A stretch of 34,186 nucleotides of DNA, from assembly GCA_003321845.1 (NCBI GenBank), contig GCA_003321845.1_3917.1. One strand, written 5' to 3'. The notes beneath the pieces are model-generated. The model had not been told where the DNA came from. It ran no database searches and worked only from the letters and a program-made list of their open reading frames with translations. The stretch's first letter is position 1; each line of letters begins with the position of its first letter. The translations under genes were made by a program, and so were the position numbers. This document shows positions 13,811 to 20,201 of this stretch, in pieces. The DNA is from Escherichia coli (GTDB taxonomy: Bacteria > Pseudomonadota > Gammaproteobacteria > Enterobacterales > Enterobacteriaceae).

Positions 13811-15427
13811 TCAACGTCTAAGCCCCTCATATGGGTTTCCTCTCACTAAGTCTGTGTGAGCACCCATTGATGGTGGCTTGAATAATTTAACTTCGTTAAG
13901 ACTGTTGAAAGCATCACTGGTAGCATCCACTTGGTCATCTTTAGTTTTACCATCACCACAAAAACCTTCAAGTTCTTGGAAGTAAGCTTCATTCCAACTA
14001 CCTCTCAAGACTTTTACAAGTCCAGCTTCAGAAGCAGCAGAAAACCCCGCAAATCGGGTAACTTTATCTTTATTTGTTGGTTTAGCTCTTGCTCGATAAC
14101 CTTTCTCGGCAAGTTTCCTGATGAGGGATGTTGCGTAGGATTTACCAGCAGCGCCTGGGTCTTGAGGGATAAAAATACCAGTTCGCTTACCGTCACTTTC
14201 AGCAGTCAAATTAATTTGTGTTTCGACTCCAGAGGGTCTATCTCTAAATCTTACTACATCAATGATATAATAGCAACCGTCTTTTTTAGATTTACCCATC
14301 TTAACACCTGCTGTCCAGTCTGGATTAGGGTTAATCTCAGATGGTAAAGTTGCTGCTAAGTCCCATGCTCTGACATCGAATACATCTTCTGGGAGTGAAT
14401 CAACAATTTCACACCATTGTCTTTGCCAATAGTTTGAACCTTCTGCACGAGCCTTCCAGTTACCGAAACGAAGTCTTGCAACGTTTACAGGAGTGTTGTT
14501 TTCCAACTTACCGCGATACTTTGGTTCTAAGAAGTCAAGAATTGGGTTATCATCAATCGTACCAGAGATGAATGTATATGTTTGAGGAATCTCAAGAGGA
14601 AACATTTCAAGAATCTTGTCTCTCTCCCAATCAGAAACCATAACACCATCATTCATTACATACCAACGAATACGACCACACTTTTCAGGGTCTGGGTAAC
14701 CTTCTTCATCTAAGAATGGTTCTACCCAATCGTAAATGAAGTGGTCTCTGTCTGGGTTCATAGAAATCTTCATGTATGAATCACCTTCAGCCCCAGAACG
14801 TAGACGAGTCTGTAGGTATGAAATCTGTGAAGCAGAGAAGTGTGTACCTTCGTCAAAGTAAATAGCTGAGTATTCAATACCCTGATGACCTTCAGCGTGC
14901 TTTTCAAGTTCTAGATAGGTAAACTTGATAGTTGCCCCAGAAGGGAATGTGATAGTCATCTTCTGCTCGTGAGGAACCCCACCAAACTTACCAAATAGTT
15001 TCTTTGCAGCAGGCCATAAACCACCTTGTAACTGTGTTGTATTTCGACGGAAATATACAGCATTATAATTAGGGTCGTCAATAAACCTTAAAGAGTCCAT
15101 TAACAATGCAGCAGTCTTACCAGCACCCGCAGCACCACCATAGAGAACCAAGTCAGCATTAGTATTTAAAAAGACCTCTTGAGAACCCGGCTGAGGGGCT
15201 ACATAGTTCTTATCAGTCATCAATTTGAAGATAAGTCTAACTTGGTCTGGTGTGTATCTTAATAAAGTCAGAATTTGAGTTGGAAGGAATTTAGAGGGGT
15301 CTTTACCGAATGATTTGATAATTTCTTTTACTTCATCAGAAAGCCCCAACTCTCCAGCTAGGACTTTCCTAACATCTTCCACTCGCTTCTGCTTAACAGC
15401 ATTTAAGTCCATTAAGCACCTCCGCAA
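13811..15427 (-). CDS. terL: Terminase large subunit
   Basis: 538 aa; Walker A P-loop LYGGAAGAGKTAAL near the N-terminus, acidic nuclease-like C-terminal half, directly upstream of the portal gene. Confidence 0.8.
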   Translation of the reverse strand: MRRCLMDLNAVKQKRVEDVRKVLAGELGLSDEVKEIIKSFGKDPSKFLPTQILTLLRYTPDQVRLIFKLMTDKNYVAPQPGSQEVFLNTNADLVLYGGAAGAGKTAALLMDSLRFIDDPNYNAVYFRRNTTQLQGGLWPAAKKLFGKFGGVPHEQKMTITFPSGATIKFTYLELEKHAEGHQGIEYSAIYFDEGTHFSASQISYLQTRLRSGAEGDSYMKISMNPDRDHFIYDWVEPFLDEEGYPDPEKCGRIRWYVMNDGVMVSDWERDKILEMFPLEIPQTYTFISGTIDDNPILDFLEPKYRGKLENNTPVNVARLRFGNWKARAEGSNYWQRQWCEIVDSLPEDVFDVRAWDLAATLPSEINPNPDWTAGVKMGKSKKDGCYYIIDVVRFRDRPSGVETQINLTAESDGKRTGIFIPQDPGAAGKSYATSLIRKLAEKGYRARAKPTNKDKVTRFAGFSAASEAGLVKVLRGSWNEAYFQELEGFCGDGKTKDDQVDATSDAFNSLNEVKLFKPPSMGAHTDLVRGNPYEGLRR

Positions 15428-15856: not shown

Positions 15857-15933
15857 TGGAGAATCCGAAGGGACTCGAACCCTTATAAACCTGTTTTGCA
15901 GACAGGCACATAGCCATTTCTGTCACGGATTCA
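15857..15933 (-). tRNA. tRNA-Cys (anticodon GCA)
   Basis: Hand-folded: encoded CCA, perfect 7-bp acceptor (gaatccg/cggattc), T-arm aaggg-actcgaa-ccctt, anticodon stem cctgt/acagg, loop reads CU-GCA-AA. Confidence 0.75.
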
Positions 15934-15936
15934 AAT

Positions 15937-16029
15937 TGGAGGAAGATACCAGACTTGAACTGGTACACCGATTTCTCAGCTACTGGCAGTTTAGCAAACT
16001 GCTCCCTTACCTTTTAGGGTTAATCTTCC
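15937..16029 (-). tRNA. tRNA-Ser (anticodon GCT), class II
   Basis: Encoded CCA, acceptor ggaagat/atcttcc, T-arm accag-acttgaa-ctggt, ~21-nt variable arm, anticodon stem gcagt/actgc, loop UU-GCU-AA. Confidence 0.75.
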
Positions 16030-16030
16030 A

Positions 16031-16765
16031 TTATTTCTGTAATGCGTTCTTCATTTCTGGTGTTGCAATAGTATCAATTACACCAGTTTTACAAGCATCA
16101 TCAAACCAGTCTGGTAAGATACCTGCTAAGAACCCATTGATATTCGTTTTAAGGTACTCTGCAATAAGAGCAGCTTCTTCTTCAATCATCTGCACAACTT
16201 CATCTGCATAAGCTGTAATCTTCGAAATACCTTCATTAATCTTACTAACAGCTTGGTTAGCTAAATCAGAAATAGTATCAAGACCTTTGTCAATAGCGTC
16301 TTGTAAGTCACTTAATACATCATTAACACCATCTAGAGCGCTGTTAATCGTATCCATAGCTTTTTGACCATACTCTGTAGCAACACCCATAATACCACTA
16401 AACGGTGTACAGCCAACTTGCTCTCCTGCTGCACCCATAACATTAGAATAACCTTTTGCTACCTGCATACGTGAGGAAAACTCATCAATGGACTTTTGAC
16501 CGTAATCCGTCAGCGTTTTGGTAGTTGATGTAGTGCTTGTCAGACTCGTTGTAAAGCTGTTAAGCAGAACTGTTGTAAGTCCAGCAGCAACAAGTTTATC
16601 TTTTATTGTAGGGTCTGTTACAGAGCTAATAGAGCTTACAAGTGATGTAGAGGCAGCTACGGTTCCACCGAGAACTGCTGCACCAGTAATAAGGGGATTA
16701 GAGAACCCTTTACCGGTTTTTAAGAGATTAAAAATCTCCTTACCTTGTTCTGTCATCTCTTTCAT
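16031..16765 (-). CDS. Hypothetical protein encoded inside the tRNA array (possible membrane or coiled-coil protein)
   Basis: ORF track gives 16031..16828 with a GTG start lying inside the tRNA-Phe anticodon arm. The first ATG (MKEMTEQ, at 16765) has AAGGTG 5 nt upstream and is the likelier start. Hydrophobic Gly/Ala segment followed by Ser/Thr-rich and acidic helical regions. Confidence 0.5.
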   Translation of the reverse strand: MKEMTEQGKEIFNLLKTGKGFSNPLITGAAVLGGTVAASTSLVSSISSVTDPTIKDKLVAAGLTTVLLNSFTTSLTSTTSTTKTLTDYGQKSIDEFSSRMQVAKGYSNVMGAAGEQVGCTPFSGIMGVATEYGQKAMDTINSALDGVNDVLSDLQDAIDKGLDTISDLANQAVSKINEGISKITAYADEVVQMIEEEAALIAEYLKTNINGFLAGILPDWFDDACKTGVIDTIATPEMKNALQK

Positions 16766-16781
16766 TAAGCACCTTTGAAAT

Positions 16782-16858
16782 TGGTAGTCCAGTGGGATTT
16801 GAACCCTCTTCTCATGTTTTTCAGACACGCGCTTTAACCATATAAGCTACTTGGACTA
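16782..16858 (-). tRNA. tRNA-Phe (anticodon GAA), slightly atypical
   Basis: Perfect acceptor tagtcca/tggacta, T-loop atttgaa with one T-stem mismatch, anticodon loop CU-GAA-AA. 3' CCA register is ambiguous. Confidence 0.55.
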
Positions 16859-16863
16859 TAAAT

Positions 16864-16939
16864 TGGGGTGACCTACGGGATTTGAACCCGTATAGACCAT
16901 GTTCACAGCATGGGTCATTACCATTTATGATAAGGCCAC
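16864..16939 (-). tRNA. tRNA-His (anticodon GTG)
   Basis: Encoded CCA, acceptor with one G-U pair, T-arm acggg-atttgaa-cccgt, anticodon stem ccatg/catgg, loop CU-GUG-AA. Confidence 0.7.
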
Positions 16940-16970
16940 ATTTAAGGACTCTCGTAAGAACCCTTAGAAG

Positions 16971-17046
16971 TGGCAGCGGCATAAGGATTTGAACCTTAAT
17001 AAGACAGCTTCAGAGACTGCTGCATTGCCAGTTATGCTATACCGCT
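16971..17046 (-). tRNA. tRNA-Gln (anticodon CTG)
   Basis: Encoded CCA, T-arm taagg-atttgaa-cctta, anticodon stem with two G-U pairs, loop CU-CUG-AA. Confidence 0.6.
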
Positions 17047-17051
17047 AAATT

Positions 17052-17130
17052 TGGTACTCCATATCGGATTCGAACCGATACATAACACAGATTTTAAGTC
17101 TGGCCTCTCTGCCAATTGGAGTAATGGAGC
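17052..17130 (-). tRNA. tRNA with anticodon TAA (formally Leu) but short variable arm
   Basis: Encoded CCA, discriminator A, T-arm atcgg-attcgaa-ccgat, anticodon loop CU-UAA-AA. Variable region only ~7 nt, i.e. class-I geometry, unusual for a Leu anticodon. Confidence 0.5.
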
Positions 17131-17131
17131 A

Positions 17132-17206
17132 TGGTACTCACTAAAGGACTTGAACCTTTTTCTTCATCTTGTAAGGGTGGTGTTTTACCATATAAACTAA
17201 GCGAGT
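17132..17206 (-). tRNA. tRNA-Val (anticodon TAC), tentative
   Basis: Encoded CCA, acceptor actcact/agcgagt with one G-U, T-arm aaagg-acttgaa-ccttt. Anticodon stem is imperfect; loop reads CU-UAC-AA. Confidence 0.5.
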
Positions 17207-17302
17207 GTGAAAGAGGTCTGAAGTTGTGCCGCTAACTCAACTCCGTGGAATTTGTTACGGTCTTCAGTTGACTCAAAGCGGTCTTTCACTTGACCTCTAA
17301 AT

Positions 17303-17378
17303 TGGTGCTCCCACAAGGATTCGAACCCTGATAAGTTGCTTACAAGGCAACCGTAATAGCCAATTATACGATAGGAGC
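17303..17378 (-). tRNA. tRNA-Thr (anticodon TGT)
   Basis: Encoded CCA, T-arm caagg-attcgaa-ccctg, perfect anticodon stem gttgc/gcaac, loop CU-UGU-AA. Confidence 0.75.
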
Positions 17379-17385
17379 ATTAATT

Positions 17386-17460
17386 TGGAGCATCCAGAGG
17401 GAATCGAACCCTCAACCTCAGTTTGGAAGACTGTAATTTTCCCGTTTAAACTATGGATGC
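17386..17460 (-). tRNA. tRNA-Gly (anticodon TCC)
   Basis: Encoded CCA, perfect acceptor gcatcca/tggatgc, T-arm gaggg-aatcgaa-ccctc, loop CU-UCC-AA. Confidence 0.7.
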
Positions 17461-17466
17461 ACTAAT

Positions 17467-17542
17467 TGGTGGAGTCACTGGGAATTGAACCCAGTTCCCA
17501 AGTTTGCAAAACTCGAATTTTAACCATATAAACTATGACCCC
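17467..17542 (-). tRNA. tRNA-Ala (anticodon TGC)
   Basis: Encoded CCA, acceptor ggagtca/tgacccc including a G-U pair, T-arm ctggg-aattgaa-cccag, loop UU-UGC-AA. Confidence 0.7.
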
Positions 17543-17548
17543 ATTGTT

Positions 17549-17624
17549 TGGTACAGGTGGAGGGAATTGAACCCATCGTCTTACTGATTAAGAGTCAGCC
17601 GCATAACCATTTTGCTACACCTGC
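17549..17624 (-). tRNA. tRNA-Lys (anticodon CTT)
   Basis: Encoded CCA, acceptor acaggtg/cacctgc, T-loop aattgaa with a 3-bp effective T-stem (same backbone as the Lys-TTT gene), loop CU-CUU-AA. Confidence 0.6.
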
Positions 17625-17631
17625 ATTAATT

Positions 17632-17709
17632 TGGTAGGAGACAAGGGATTCGAACCCTCAAACACCAACTTCTAAGGATGGTAGGTTTACCAATTACCGT
17701 CAATCTCCC
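17632..17709 (-). tRNA. tRNA with anticodon TAG (formally Leu) but short variable arm
   Basis: Encoded CCA, discriminator A, T-arm aaggg-attcgaa-ccctc, anticodon loop CU-UAG-AA with one A-A mismatch in the stem; class-I length (~78 nt). Confidence 0.5.
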
Positions 17710-17961
17710 ATTAAATCTTTTTAGAGAACTTCTAAGAACCTAAGCAACAAGGTTCCACAACAAGCTGTAATAACCTTAGAAGCCCTCTAAAAAGACCTAA
17801 TTTGGTCTTTGCATAGTCTTGTTTAATCCGGTGACTAGAACCTTTGGAGAGCTTGATATTATCTCTTCTCCGTGACACCTACTAGGTGCTTTATCAGTGT
17901 ACGACAATACACGAGGGATAAACCGAAAATGCGAGCAAGCATGGACGGTGTAAATCTTATT

Positions 17962-18052
17962 AGGCGGTAAGTAAAGGAGTCGAACCCTCACCGTATCTCT
18001 ACAGTGGCAACAGTTTTCAAGACTGTTTGGCTGCCATTAGCCGCTACCTACC
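17962..18052 (-). tRNA. tRNA-Ser (anticodon TGA), class II
   Basis: Perfect 6-bp anticodon stem aacagt/actgtt with loop CU-UGA-AA, ~20-nt variable arm, acceptor ggtaagt/acctacc, discriminator G. T-stem has two G-U pairs; CCA not fully encoded. Confidence 0.55.
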
Positions 18053-18065
18053 CCTAATAAGATTT

Positions 18066-18148
18066 TGGCATGGGACGGAGGAGTTGAACCCCTTTGAAAC
18101 GGTTTTGGAGGCCGTTGCTCATGCCTTAGAGTCTTAACATCGTCCCAT
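18066..18148 (-). tRNA. tRNA, probably Trp (anticodon CCA), atypical length
   Basis: Encoded CCA, perfect acceptor atgggac/gtcccat, T-loop agttgaa, anticodon hairpin acggc/accgt with loop CU-CCA-AA. About 7 extra nt in the D-arm region. Confidence 0.45.
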
Positions 18149-18291
18149 ACTGTAATTCGAAGCTTACCGTATTTTCACAACACTGTAAAGCCCCTTCTCA
18201 GATTATTTACATGTTCTGGAAAACATGAGATACAGACCACCTCCTTACACGGAGACCCGATAAGGTCGTCTAAGCAATCTGCTAACTAAAT

Positions 18292-18373
18292 TGGTCGAGG
18301 CGGCAGGACTCGAACCCGCATACTCCACTTACTCGGTTAACGGCGGTTTAGAAGACCGCTGAGATACGCCCCG
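18292..18373 (-). tRNA. tRNA-like element (anticodon-like loop TCT, Arg?) with degenerate D-arm
   Basis: Encoded CCA, acceptor cgaggcg/cgccccg, T-arm gcagg-actcgaa-cccgc, perfect hairpin gcggt-ttagaag-accgc giving CU-UCU-AA. Only ~7 nt where the D-arm should be and ~23 nt between the T-arm and that hairpin. Confidence 0.4.
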
Positions 18374-18667
18374 TAATTATCTTTAAAGACTCTCTGAGAA
18401 AGCCCTTAAAGATGCCCACATTATTAATCATACCGTGGGCTAGTACGCCAAATTCTTTGATGAGGGGTTGGAAGACCTCACTGGTGTTTAGCCTATCAAG
18501 CTACTGCCAGAAAAACATTGTCGTTTGCATTTATTTTAAATTTACAAAATAGACGCTACGCAACGAAAACTATTCAGAATATGTACAACAAATTTCCCCA
18601 CATTGTGTTACGTCTAACGCTCATGTCTTGGTGTTTGAATTATACATATGCTGAATCATTTTCAGTT

Positions 18668-18696
18668 ACTATAAAGTAGTCACATCTCAATGTCAA
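18668..18696 (-). promoter_or_regulatory. Candidate sigma70-type promoter internal to the tRNA array
   Basis: Minus strand reads TTGACA, 17 nt, TATAGT (plus-strand tgtcaa at ~18691 and actata at ~18668); it would drive the lower half of the array. Confidence 0.45.
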
Positions 18697-18711
18697 CAAC
18701 TTTATTGAAAT

Positions 18712-18785
18712 TGGTTGTAGGTGAGGGTATCGAACCCTCTTCTAACGGTTATCAGCCGTTTGCATTACCATTTATGCTAACCCAC
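18712..18785 (-). tRNA. tRNA-Ile (anticodon GAT)
   Basis: Encoded CCA, T-arm gaggg-tatcgaa-ccctc, perfect anticodon stem aacgg/ccgtt, loop CU-GAU-AA. Confidence 0.75.
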
Positions 18786-18788
18786 AAT

Positions 18789-18865
18789 TGGAGGTTCAGA
18801 TGGGAATCGAACCCACATCCATAGGGCTTATGAAACCCCTGCATTACCTTATCTGCGACTGAACC
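18789..18865 (-). tRNA. tRNA-Met (anticodon CAT; could be elongator Met or Ile2)
   Basis: Encoded CCA, perfect acceptor ggttcag/ctgaacc, T-arm atggg-aatcgaa-cccac, loop UU-CAU-AA. Confidence 0.6.
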
Positions 18866-18943
18866 ATAATAAGTACCCTAGTTAGAGAAACTATTGAGTG
18901 GGTGTTTCCAGCCGCGCAGGTGTTTCTCAGTTAAGGGTGAATT

Positions 18944-19019
18944 TGGTAGAAGTGGAGGGATTCGAACCCATCGCCTGTCAGATTAAAAGTCTGCCGCATC
19001 ACCATTCTGCTACACTTCC
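18944..19019 (-). tRNA. tRNA-Lys (anticodon TTT)
   Basis: Encoded CCA, acceptor agaagtg/cacttcc, T-loop attcgaa, anticodon stem caga/tctg, loop CU-UUU-AA. Confidence 0.65.
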
Positions 19020-19024
19020 ATTAA

Positions 19025-19167
19025 ATTATCTTTGTAGATAAGCTACCCAGACTTGCTTAAGGTCTGTAGCGATGTGCCTTTTTGGGTTTAAATCTAGAAT
19101 TTACCCTTTCACCCTTTGTGGTCGCATACTCACAGGTAAGCTTAATAACTTATCTACAAAGATAATT
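19025..19167. repeat. Perfect 18-bp inverted repeat (attatctttgtagataag / cttatctacaaagataat) enclosing ~107 nt
   Basis: Read directly from the sequence; arms at ~19025-19042 and ~19150-19167 within a tRNA-free stretch of the array. Predicts a long stem-closed structured RNA or a DNA cruciform. Confidence 0.6.
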
Positions 19168-19216
19168 ACCAGACCGTTGTTTATCATCTTAAGTGCTACC
19201 ATTACACCAACTCGAC

Positions 19217-19245
19217 ATCTGCCGAGTGAAGGAATCGAACCTTCG
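19217..19245 (-). other. Orphan tRNA T-arm-like hairpin (tRNA fragment or tRNA-like module)
   Basis: gaagg-aatcgaa-ccttc is a perfect T-arm mimic with an acceptor-like 7-mer beside it, but no matching 5' acceptor strand, D-arm or anticodon arm could be found. Confidence 0.3.
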
Positions 19246-19477
19246 CCTTTTCTTTACCGGAGAAATAGATTGTTTAAAGTTTGCTGTAAACGGTCTTCTG
19301 TAAATTTGTTGAGCCAGACCAAGTTTTAAATTTTTTCAAAATTAAATTGGCTTGAAAATTTCATACGTACTTGCTGAATTTGGTCTTCTGCTCCTTTAAA
19401 GAATACTCGTAAGAACTCTTTAAGGGAGGGGCTAAATAGCCCTCTCAAAACATCATTTTGAAATACTTATTATAATT

Positions 19478-19555
19478 TGGCGGTTACGAAGGGATTTGAA
19501 CCCTCATCATCTCCCGTGACAGGGGAGTATTTTAACCAGTTAAACTACATAACCT
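19478..19555 (-). tRNA. tRNA-Asp (anticodon GTC)
   Basis: Encoded CCA, T-arm aaggg-atttgaa-ccctc, perfect anticodon stem ctccc/gggag, loop CU-GUC-AC. Confidence 0.75.
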
Positions 19556-19560
19556 TTATT

Positions 19561-19648
19561 TGGTGTGCCGTGTAGGAGTCGAACCTACCGAGTCTCAATG
19601 ACAAGGGATTTACAGTCCCCACCGCTACCATCTACGGGATAACGACAC
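19561..19648 (-). tRNA. tRNA-Tyr (anticodon GTA), class II
   Basis: Encoded CCA, T-arm gtagg-agtcgaa-cctac, ~15-nt variable arm, anticodon stem aggga/tcccc, loop CU-GUA-AA. Confidence 0.7.
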
Positions 19649-19717
19649 ATTTAATTTCTATTCAGGCTAAGGACTTGCACCTTACAAATCGGTGAGCAAT
19701 CGCTTCTCTCCTAAATT

Positions 19718-19794
19718 TGGCGGTTAGTCAGGGATTCGAACCCTGTGCCATTCGCTTAACAGGCGACCGCACATACCTTATGTGCTTCCTAACC
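19718..19794 (-). tRNA. tRNA-Asn (anticodon GTT)
   Basis: Encoded CCA, T-arm caggg-attcgaa-ccctg, anticodon stem tcgc/gcga, loop CU-GUU-AA. Confidence 0.7.
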
Positions 19795-19871
19795 TTAATA
19801 CATTGCCAGACCGTGTTTTTTCTTTTATCCGCAAAAAGTATTTTGTTGCTGAATACGGTCTTCTGCAAAAT

Positions 19872-19948
19872 TGGAGGCGGGTGCAGGAGTCGAACCTACC
19901 GATACCATGCTAATGAGACATGTGAGACGCCCTTTCTCTATACCCGCA
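19872..19948 (-). tRNA. tRNA-Met (anticodon CAT), possible initiator
   Basis: Encoded CCA, T-arm gcagg-agtcgaa-cctac, D-stem gaga/tctc, anticodon loop with CAT. The 1:72 acceptor pair is mismatched, as in bacterial initiator tRNA. Confidence 0.55.
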
Positions 19949-20039
19949 ATTCTTAATGACCAGACCAAATCTCTTCTTTGTCCGATTTACCTTCAGATGA
20001 ATAAGATTAAGTTTGCTGCAATTGGTCTTCTGTCAAAAC

Positions 20040-20117
20040 TGGCGTTCCAGAAGGGATTTGAACCCTCAAATATCCACTTTGAAAGAGTGGCGACTTTACC
20101 GTTTTGTCTACTGGAAC
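20040..20117 (-). tRNA. tRNA-Glu (anticodon TTC)
   Basis: Encoded CCA, perfect acceptor gttccag/ctggaac, T-arm aaggg-atttgaa-ccctc, perfect anticodon stem ccact/agtgg, loop CU-UUC-AA. Confidence 0.75.
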
Positions 20118-20124
20118 ATTAATT

Positions 20125-20201
20125 TGGTCTCTGTTGGAGGACTTGAACCTCCGGCCTTACCGCCCCAAACGGAACGCTCTACCAAGCTGAGCTAAACAGA
20201 G
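20125..20201 (-). tRNA. tRNA-Pro (anticodon TGG)
   Basis: Encoded CCA, perfect acceptor ctctgtt/aacagag, perfect T-arm ggagg-acttgaa-cctcc, anticodon loop UU-UGG-GG. Confidence 0.65.

Follow-up and report, generated by a model that had tools for sequence, protein, structure and literature searches.

The DNA analysed here, a stretch of 34,186 nucleotides (nt) from the Escherichia coli assembly GCA_003321845.1 (contig GCA_003321845.1_3917.1; hereafter the window), is that of a Felix O1-like phage (Felixounavirus), and its tRNA cluster contains two genes with leucine anticodons, tRNA-Leu(UAA) and tRNA-Leu(UAG), that lack the long variable arm which textbooks and specialist papers alike treat as a hallmark of bacterial tRNA-Leu. 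The genes themselves, their type I (short-armed) fold, its conservation and covariation, the leucine identity nucleotides, the codon bias of the phage and a homologue with a recorded function are directly supported by the analysis, and from these we infer that both are probably ordinary codon-supply tRNAs, which would be charged by the host leucyl-tRNA synthetase (LeuRS) and would benefit the phage in reading its frequent UUA and CUA codons. The two genes and their diagnostic parts are the following.

17052–17130, minus strand: tRNA-Leu(UAA), type I, 79 nt including the encoded CCA (17052–17054), called by ARAGORN
17094–17096, minus strand: anticodon UAA, placed by ARAGORN at position 35, in the loop CU-UAA-AA; reads UUA and UUG
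17080–17086, minus strand: variable region GUUAUGU of tRNA-Leu(UAA), 7 nt, without a stem, its last nucleotide being U48 (alignments to Rfam and to the leucine model R1 described below, and ARAGORN drawing)
17632–17709, minus strand: tRNA-Leu(UAG), type I, 78 nt including the encoded CCA (17632–17634), called by ARAGORN
17672–17674, minus strand: anticodon UAG in the loop CU-UAG-AA; reads CUA and CUG, and CUU too if U34 is modified as in the host
17660–17664, minus strand: variable region UGUUU of tRNA-Leu(UAG), 5 nt, its last nucleotide being U48 (Rfam alignment and ARAGORN drawing)

The original prediction, made from the sequence alone, had placed two short-armed tRNAs with leucine anticodons at about 17052–17130 and 17632–17709, and both were called by ARAGORN and by the Rfam tRNA model RF00005 (47.5 bits for tRNA-Leu(UAA) and 40.0 bits for tRNA-Leu(UAG), against a gathering score of 29), with variable regions of 7 and 5 nt. 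The distances that it had counted from the 5′ acceptor strand to the T stem, 44 and 43 nt, were recovered by reading the sequence, as were the encoded CCA, the discriminator A and the loops CU-UAA-AA and CU-UAG-AA, with which the ARAGORN drawings agree; the check that it had proposed, refolding with ARAGORN and a covariance model, returned the same anticodons and no alternative register that yields a long arm. With 7 and 5 nt, the variable regions lie outside bacterial class II tRNA-Leu, defined by a variable arm of >10 nt with a stem, and both genes fall within type I tRNA-Leu, defined by a leucine anticodon together with a short variable loop that has at least 5 nt and includes nucleotide 48.

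tRNA-Leu(UAA) is regular throughout. From the acceptor to the anticodon stem it reads GCUCCAU UA CUCC AAUUGGCAG AGAG G CCAGA CUUAAAA UCUGU, and from the variable region to the CCA end GUUAUGU AUCGG UUCGAAU CCGAU AUGGAGU A CCA, so written that the acceptor GCUCCAU/AUGGAGU with its G1.U72 pair and discriminator A73, and the D arm CUCC-AAUUGGCAG-AGAG at 17105–17121, can be followed; U8 and A14 both stand at their standard positions. The corresponding halves of tRNA-Leu(UAG) are GGGAGAU UG ACGG UAAUUGGUAA ACCU A CCAUC CUUAGAA GUUGG and UGUUU GAGGG UUCGAAU CCCUU GUCUCCU A CCA, with the acceptor GGGAGAU/GUCUCCU, again G1.U72 and A73, and the D arm ACGG-UAAUUGGUAA-ACCU at 17683–17700, the register of which was set by homology to a tRNA gene of phage BF23. 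This D arm has a C11xC24 mismatch, and its loop opens with one extra U relative to the BF23 homologue: the gene carries AAUUGGUAA, in which the extra U precedes A14, and the loop starts with U and then AA, so that the A14 of the U8-A14 pair is displaced by one nucleotide or replaced. The anticodon stem CCAUC/GUUGG contains a U.U mismatch. A candidate compensatory change in the D stem of tRNA-Leu(UAG), a U-to-C exchange in the relative L021, was dropped, the second change (A21 to G21) lying in the loop.

Three further tRNAs of the same cluster served as internal controls, all called by ARAGORN with long variable arms.

15937–16029, minus strand: tRNA-Ser(GCU), 93 nt
17963–18052, minus strand: tRNA-Ser(UGA), 90 nt
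19561–19648, minus strand: tRNA-Tyr(GUA), 88 nt

Since these serine and tyrosine tRNAs are long-armed, the short tRNA-Leu are no artefact of mis-set boundaries.

The short leucine genes are conserved well beyond the window. Relatives were sampled as 35 loci fetched through the terminase gene and then passed through ARAGORN, and all Felixounavirus loci covering the region carry a 79-nt Leu(UAA) and a Leu(UAG) of 77–79 nt, and usually a 78-nt Leu(CAA) as well, together with serine tRNAs of 90 and 93 nt and, where called, a tyrosine tRNA of 88 nt; each sampled Felixounavirus relative thus has two or three short tRNA-Leu, and relatives at only 42% terminase identity still have a 77-nt Leu(UAG). 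The tRNA-Leu(UAA) gene is at least 95% identical (95–100%) in 253 cultured-phage records, and homologues of the tRNA-Leu(UAG) gene with 80–90% identity were found in 261 further records, mainly of T5-like phages (BF23, Epseptimavirus) and of some Salmonella phages of 150–160 kilobases (kb). Within the genus (loci L001–L029) the Leu(UAG) slot is occupied by two unrelated alleles, type A (gggagatt..., 78–79 nt), to which the gene of the window belongs, and type B (gcacctat..., 77 nt). The anticodon stems of type A vary by paired changes (CCAUC/GUUGG, UCUCG/CGAGA and CCUCG/CGAGG) and are fully or nearly fully paired, so that the turnover of the anticodon arm is unusually fast.

Covariation was analysed in a wider set, 149 unique short tRNA-Leu gathered from viral and genome contigs, of which 76, including both tRNAs of the window, were aligned. 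Over these 76 the type I cloverleaf has standard pairs in 98.8% of cells, with changes on both sides in 19 of the 20 pairs, and sliding the 3′ partners by one to three columns as a control drops the pairing to 37–48%; the short cloverleaf is far beyond chance. Single-sequence minimum-energy folding gave no cloverleaf for the two tRNAs (z-scores −1.6 and −0.3), a test that is poor for tRNAs in general.

Leucine identity was assessed under the rules for E. coli collected in a review (PMC9976931), according to which LeuRS requires neither the anticodon nor the long arm, arm-less variants staying active, while arm size is the chief identity element for seryl-tRNA synthetase (SerRS). Both phage tRNAs keep the E. 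coli LeuRS set, namely A73, U48 and a D arm that resembles the host's and contains G18G19 and A20a, and their D arms are of the class II leucine type (A14, A15, G18G19, A20a and an unpaired 13:22, position 14 being irregular in tRNA-Leu(UAG) because of the extra U); the variable region of each ends in U, so that A15-U48 can form. The same nucleotides recur among the 149 short tRNA-Leu, with A73 in 148, U48 in 125, A14A15 in 120 and G1.U72 in 92. The leucine D-loop signature was found in 197 of 226 long leucine tRNAs (87%), 99 of 158 short ones (63%) and about 7% of other tRNAs.

Two scaffolds stand out among the short genes. The first combines the D arm NNCC-AAYYGGCAG-AGGN with an NCAGU-like variable loop, and includes the UAA, CAA and type B UAG tRNAs of Felixounavirus as well as the actinobacterial genes; the other, UGAYGG-AAUUGGYAUAC with a variable loop like GUUUU, has the BF23 gene as a member and tRNA-Leu(UAG) of the window as a variant. 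All 115 matches to the two signatures have leucine anticodons (UAA, UAG, CAA, CAG or GAG), and none occurred among 964 short non-leucine tRNAs. Scaffolds that carry the anticodons of both leucine codon boxes and no others are the pattern expected from a synthetase that ignores the anticodon. The original prediction had left two options, structurally unusual leucine isoacceptors or tRNAs whose charging identity differs from their anticodon, and the first is borne out by the type I fold, the leucine anticodons, A73 and the leucine-type D arm. The second found no positive support, given the lack of G3.U70 and of a long arm and the restriction of both scaffolds to leucine anticodons (115/115), and the anticodons UAA and UAG fit no anticodon-reading synthetase.

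Three particular identities were tried and rejected. Nonsense suppression would need the anticodon UUA, CUA or UCA, and those present, 5′-UAA-3′ and 5′-UAG-3′, pair with UUA/UUG and CUA/CUG; alanine is marked by G3.U70, and pair 3:70 is U-A in tRNA-Leu(UAA) and G-C in tRNA-Leu(UAG); serine is marked by a long arm of suitable size and G73, and both tRNAs have short loops and A73, the phage's own serine tRNAs having the arm.

As a stand-in for isotype-specific scoring, a covariance model (R1) was built from 60 long-armed bacterial tRNA-Leu and applied to the cluster. tRNA-Leu(UAA) came first with 55.6 bits, compared with 44.5 for the next, a score to which the anticodon loop contributes in part; its alignment to R1 deletes the whole variable-arm stem. 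When the Rfam tRNA score was subtracted from that of R1, tRNA-Leu(UAA) obtained +8.1 bits, tRNA-Leu(UAG) +2.4 and tRNA-Ser(UGA) +0.8 (owing to its arm), a tRNA-like element at 18295–18373 −2.3, and the remaining tRNAs scored by both models −13 to −34. Under this stand-in, R1 thus supports the leucine character of tRNA-Leu(UAA) clearly and that of tRNA-Leu(UAG) weakly, being not decisive for the latter.

The closest known counterpart of tRNA-Leu(UAG) is tRNA-Leu1 of the T5-like phage BF23 (AJ604530, deposited by the laboratory that studied the T5 and BF23 tRNAs), a type I tRNA of 77 nt with the anticodon UAG and a 5-nt variable loop, GUUUU. It reads GCGUGAU UG AUGG AAUUGGCAU ACAU A CCGUC CUUAGAA GUCGG from the acceptor to the anticodon stem, and GUUUU GAGGG UUCGAAU CCCUU GUCACGC A CCA from the variable region to the CCA end. 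The two tRNAs are 84% identical, have the same T arm, share the U30.U40 mismatch, A73 and the CCA, and both belong to phages with E. coli as host; BF23 tRNA-Leu1 differs by G1-C72 and by a D arm that is regular, AUGG-AAUUGGCAU-ACAU, its A14 at the proper position, whereas the tRNA of the window has the extra U, C11xC24 and G1.U72. According to the BF23 GenBank record, replacing its anticodon by CUA makes tRNA-Leu1 an effective amber suppressor in E. coli; this suppressor test is on record for the BF23 tRNA and none for that of the window. It indicates that E. coli processes and charges a type I tRNA-Leu built on this scaffold, and that its ribosomes use it, despite the change of anticodon. Phage T5 has, in the slot next to tRNA-Ala that the 77-nt type I gene occupies in BF23, a tRNA-Leu(UAG) of 85 nt and type II with the same anticodon, also in a coliphage, so that one type takes the place of the other in close relatives that infect the same host.

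The host's own tRNA-Leu were compared likewise. E. coli leuZ (UAA) and leuW (UAG) have the same anticodons and A73 as the phage tRNAs, leuZ also G1.U72, and the same D-arm geometry, a stem of 3 base pairs (bp) with a 13:22 mismatch and a 9-nt loop AAYYGGYAG. Thus in the D arms of leuZ (GUGG-AAUCGGUAG-ACAC) and tRNA-Leu(UAA) (CUCC-AAUUGGCAG-AGAG) three pairs form the stem, 13:22 is unpaired, and the nine bases of the loop show the same landmarks. The host genes differ in length (leuZ, leuW and leuX being 87, 85 and 85 nt), with stem-forming variable arms of 15 nt in leuZ and 13 nt in leuW. Overall sequence likeness is too low for detection by blastn, and a blastn search of both phage tRNAs against all complete E. 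coli genomes gave no match at E = 10, the database being too large for such short queries.

Type I tRNA-Leu are already known from animal mitochondria and Streptomyces, the BF23 gene has been deposited, and Felixounavirus genes are annotated as tRNA-Leu in many records; in bacteria they are termed rare (PMC6614811). The human mitochondrial tRNA-Leu(UUR) is of type I with the anticodon UAA and takes its identity from A73 and A14 without a long arm (PMC9976931), and differs in being organellar, in its loose structure and in having its own LeuRS; no sequence relationship is expected. Streptomyces coelicolor tRNA-Leu(CAA) has the variable loop ACAGC, of 5 nt; a bacterial LeuRS leucylates it, and its U8-A14 is important for charging; the Streptomyces LeuRS needs at least 5 variable-loop nucleotides including position 48 for type I tRNA-Leu (Fan et al. 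2019, PMC6614811). The widespread scaffold with the variable loop NCAGU, found in Actinobacteria and in the Felixounavirus type B UAG tRNA, is similar to ACAGC in this loop. S. coelicolor differs from the phage case in that its gene is chromosomal, its genome is high in G+C and its LeuRS has an adapted leucine-specific domain, whereas the phage tRNAs have to function in E. coli or Salmonella. No treatment of phage tRNA-Leu without the arm came up in literature searches directed at type I tRNA-Leu of phages and at the tRNAs of Felix O1.

The codon usage of the phage fits the usual codon-supply role of phage tRNAs. The window has a G+C content of 39%, and in its 31 long reading frames TTA makes up 28.1%, CTA 11.2% and CTG 14.1% of the leucine codons, compared with 10.1%, 4.2% and 57.2% in 40 annotated genes of E. 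coli K-12; the share of TTA and CTA is about 2.7-fold higher in the phage, and in the host UUA and CUA are read by minor tRNA species. The most frequent leucine codon of the phage is CUU (28.6%). We picture the following course. The two tRNAs would be transcribed with about 20 others from the minus-strand cluster and trimmed by host enzymes, the CCA being already encoded. They would then be charged with leucine by the host LeuRS, indifferent to the anticodon and the long arm, through A73 and the shape of the corner where D loop and T loop meet (U8-A14, A15-U48, the position of G18G19, and A20a), recognition features that both appear to keep, with position 14 irregular in tRNA-Leu(UAG). Decoding capacity would thereby be added for UUA/UUG and CUA/CUG, and tRNA-Leu(UAG) might also read CUU, provided that its U34 is modified as in the host.

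Several observations weigh against this codon-supply reading, most of them concerning tRNA-Leu(UAG). R1, giving it 42.4 bits and only the fifth rank in the cluster, does not set it apart from other tRNAs; it is irregular in having an extra U at the expected A14, C11xC24 and the U.U mismatch; and of all tRNAs lacking a long arm it scores lowest with Rfam (40 bits). Its homologues are annotated as tRNA-Leu in most GenBank records, but the record of Yersinia phage phiR2-01 has the label ‘tRNA-Pseudo-TAG’ and that of Salmonella phage DaR-2019b pseudo ‘tRNA-OTHER’. The BF23 suppressor note names no inserted amino acid, and amber suppressors are sometimes mischarged. Moreover, E. coli LeuRS did not leucylate the natural S. 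coelicolor type I tRNA-Leu(CAA) and has been described as type II-only (Fan et al. 2019, PMC6614811), although that tRNA may simply lack E. coli-specific features.

It is this failure of E. coli LeuRS, together with the disturbed A14 position and the R1 ranking of tRNA-Leu(UAG), that speaks for a switch of identity, in which the tRNAs would read leucine codons and carry another amino acid attached by a different host synthetase, for a deliberate mistranslation or recoding at UUA and CUA. We regard it as very unlikely, for neither tRNA shows an element for another synthetase: pair 3:70 is U-A or G-C, the arm for SerRS is missing, UAA and UAG suit none of the anticodon-reading synthetases, and A73, present in both, rules out Gly, Cys, His, Asp, Asn, Gln and Trp under the E. 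coli identity rules. The D arm copies that of the host tRNA-Leu, A73 is all but invariant among the short leucine tRNAs (148/149), and the scaffolds combine with five leucine anticodons of both codon boxes and with no other. The D- and anticodon-stem mismatches of tRNA-Leu(UAG), the pseudo labels of some of its homologues and the single-sequence folds without a cloverleaf (z-scores −1.6 and −0.3) could be read as decay, the genes being pseudo-tRNAs from which a deletion removed the long arm and which the cluster merely carries with it. That is most improbable in view of the 95–100% identity of the UAA gene in 253 phage records and of the two scaffolds, which recur in phages unrelated to one another, with 98.8% of cells paired and many compensatory changes. 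The tRNAs have kept an intact T loop, G18G19, A73 and CCA; the homologue in BF23, sharing the U.U mismatch, works as a suppressor; and single-sequence folding discriminates poorly for tRNAs.

The short arm might instead serve evasion, hiding leucine tRNAs from a factor of host or phage origin that responds to the class II shape of the host's tRNA-Leu, such as a tRNA-targeting defence nuclease or a phage-induced turnover of host tRNAs. Phage tRNAs can escape tRNA-cleaving defences (PMC10264068; cited in PMC10644984). Short tRNA-Leu were commoner in the viral than in the bacterial and archaeal sample (16% versus 9%, among the matches listed), and the anticodon stem of the UAG allele has been swapped repeatedly within one genus. 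Nevertheless, no nuclease is known to target the variable arm of tRNA-Leu, nor did the searches turn one up; T5 thrives in this host although its Leu(UAG) is type II; the same short scaffold occurs as a single copy in contigs assigned to bacteria such as Gordonia, Nocardioides and Arcanobacterium, possibly at prophage sites; and codon supply already accounts for the presence of the genes. Evasion is therefore unlikely in our judgement. Rather doubtful, too, is the broader proposal that many phages of E. coli-type hosts prefer arm-less tRNA-Leu, either for an escape that would give them a private leucine-decoding pool or through a charging route that the work on E. coli LeuRS does not predict.

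How common the short forms are was estimated by a census that searched for the UAA anticodon loop CTTAAAA followed by the T loop GGTTCRANTCC at any spacing from short to long; its fractions are rough, resting on one loop sequence, and the viral contigs may hold host tRNA genes at prophage ends. Among the matches listed, the variable region was 4–7 nt long in 18 of 114 tRNA-Leu(UAA) matches from viral contigs (∼16%) and in 11 of 123 from bacterial and archaeal genomes (∼9%). Those from genomes mostly belong to Actinobacteria (Nocardioides, Gordonia, Arcanobacterium and Herbiconiux), where they are single tRNA genes, and one Planctomycetota contig has three consecutive short leucine tRNAs. Roughly, then, the counts show short tRNA-Leu to be a sizeable minority, above all in phages. 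The premise of the original prediction, that bacterial and phage tRNA-Leu are normally class II, accordingly holds for E. coli (85–87 nt) and T5 (85 nt), but needs qualifying for these short forms and for the hundreds of enterobacterial phage genomes that carry the present genes or close homologues. Individual phages outside the genus vary: Klebsiella phage VLCpiM5a (L396, Vequintavirinae) has a short tRNA-Leu(UAA) of 78 nt, Pectobacterium phage POP12 (L397, T4-like Straboviridae) a short tRNA-Leu(CAG) of 76 nt, and Escherichia phage alia a type II Leu(UAA) of 86 nt by ARAGORN, or 85 nt as annotated.

The function proposed is ordinary and the genes are real and conserved; the interest lies in how common such tRNAs are in phages and in the question they put to E. 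coli LeuRS. Arm-less tRNA-Leu have been kept across hundreds of genomes in Felix O1-like phages, within which they are near-identical, in T5-like phages (BF23) and in larger Salmonella phages, so that either E. coli LeuRS accepts natural type I tRNA-Leu or something unexpected befalls these tRNAs. Annotation pipelines disagree on them (tRNA-Leu, pseudo or OTHER), and recognising a coherent family would lead to cleaner phage annotation.

The surroundings of the two genes are those of a Felixounavirus genome. A megablast search with 16700–18100 matched 313 phage records, nearly all of Felixounavirus from Escherichia, Salmonella, Shigella and Citrobacter, the closest being Escherichia phage vB_EcoM_E9 (E9; 98.9% identity), in which the arrangement of terminase, tRNA cluster and DUF2828/DUF7788 gene is the same.

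15857–20201, minus strand: phage tRNA cluster with 22 tRNA genes, all on the minus strand (ARAGORN)
13811–15427, minus strand: large terminase gene, bordering the tRNA cluster on one side
20367–21782, minus strand: DUF2828/DUF7788 gene, 471 amino acids, directly upstream of the tRNA cluster
18292–18374, minus strand: tRNA-like RNA without a D arm, 83 nt, missed by ARAGORN and scoring 31.7 bits with the Rfam tRNA model

The Rfam tRNA model confirmed 20 of the 22 ARAGORN calls and added one odd match (18295–18373). The DUF2828/DUF7788 protein is annotated as ‘RNA-binding protein’ in E9, and a DUF7217 protein of 265 amino acids is encoded inside the cluster (16031–16828, minus strand) between tRNA-Ser(GCU) and tRNA-Phe.

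The tRNA-like RNA at 18292–18374 occupies the slot of a normal tRNA-Arg(UCU) in E9. Its 7-bp acceptor stem is followed by a 7-nt connector, UAUCUCA, which replaces the D arm, and by an anticodon arm with the loop CUUCUAA and the anticodon UCU; 3′ of this come an extra region of 23 nt (CGUUAAYCGAGUAANYGGAGUAU) and a T arm of normal form, then A73 and, in most copies, CCA. The element was found by blastn in 263 phage records, mostly unannotated and across unrelated families, the carriers including unrelated jumbo phages, Stephanstirmvirinae, Vequintavirinae (alia, muut, VLCpiM5a) and T4-like phages. A pattern scan recovered it from 41 IMG/VR viral contigs, which with four fetched phage loci gave 27 sequence variants of one length. 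Over 25 variants, the acceptor, anticodon and T stems are paired in 97.3% of cells, with 14 pairs changed on both sides; neither the connector nor the extra region varies, and G3.U70 is not conserved. A literature search found no paper on this element, which may merit separate study.

Some smaller observations concern the cluster itself. At 17131, the junction between tRNA-Leu(UAA) (17052–17130) and tRNA-Val (17132–17206), the window is without a block of ∼1.06 kb that in E9 and most relatives contains tRNA-Gln(UUG), two small genes, tRNA-Arg(ACG) and tRNA-Leu(CAA); the relative L018 is without Leu(CAA) and has a chimeric leucine gene, the 5′ part of CAA type and the 3′ part of UAA type. The missing block and the chimeric gene together suggest that the block was lost through recombination between similar leucine genes. 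A stretch of the 147-kb record GU169904.1, named ‘Staphylococcus phage SA1’, is 96% identical to the tRNA cluster of this enterobacterial phage and matches Leu(UAA) at 100% over query bases 2–79, near its full length; the record looks like a chimeric or contaminated assembly. Finally, a degenerate tRNA-like match at 18072–18146 (minus strand), weak with 23 bits in the tRNA-Sec model and 11.7 bits in R1 and below any threshold, may be a decayed tRNA gene.

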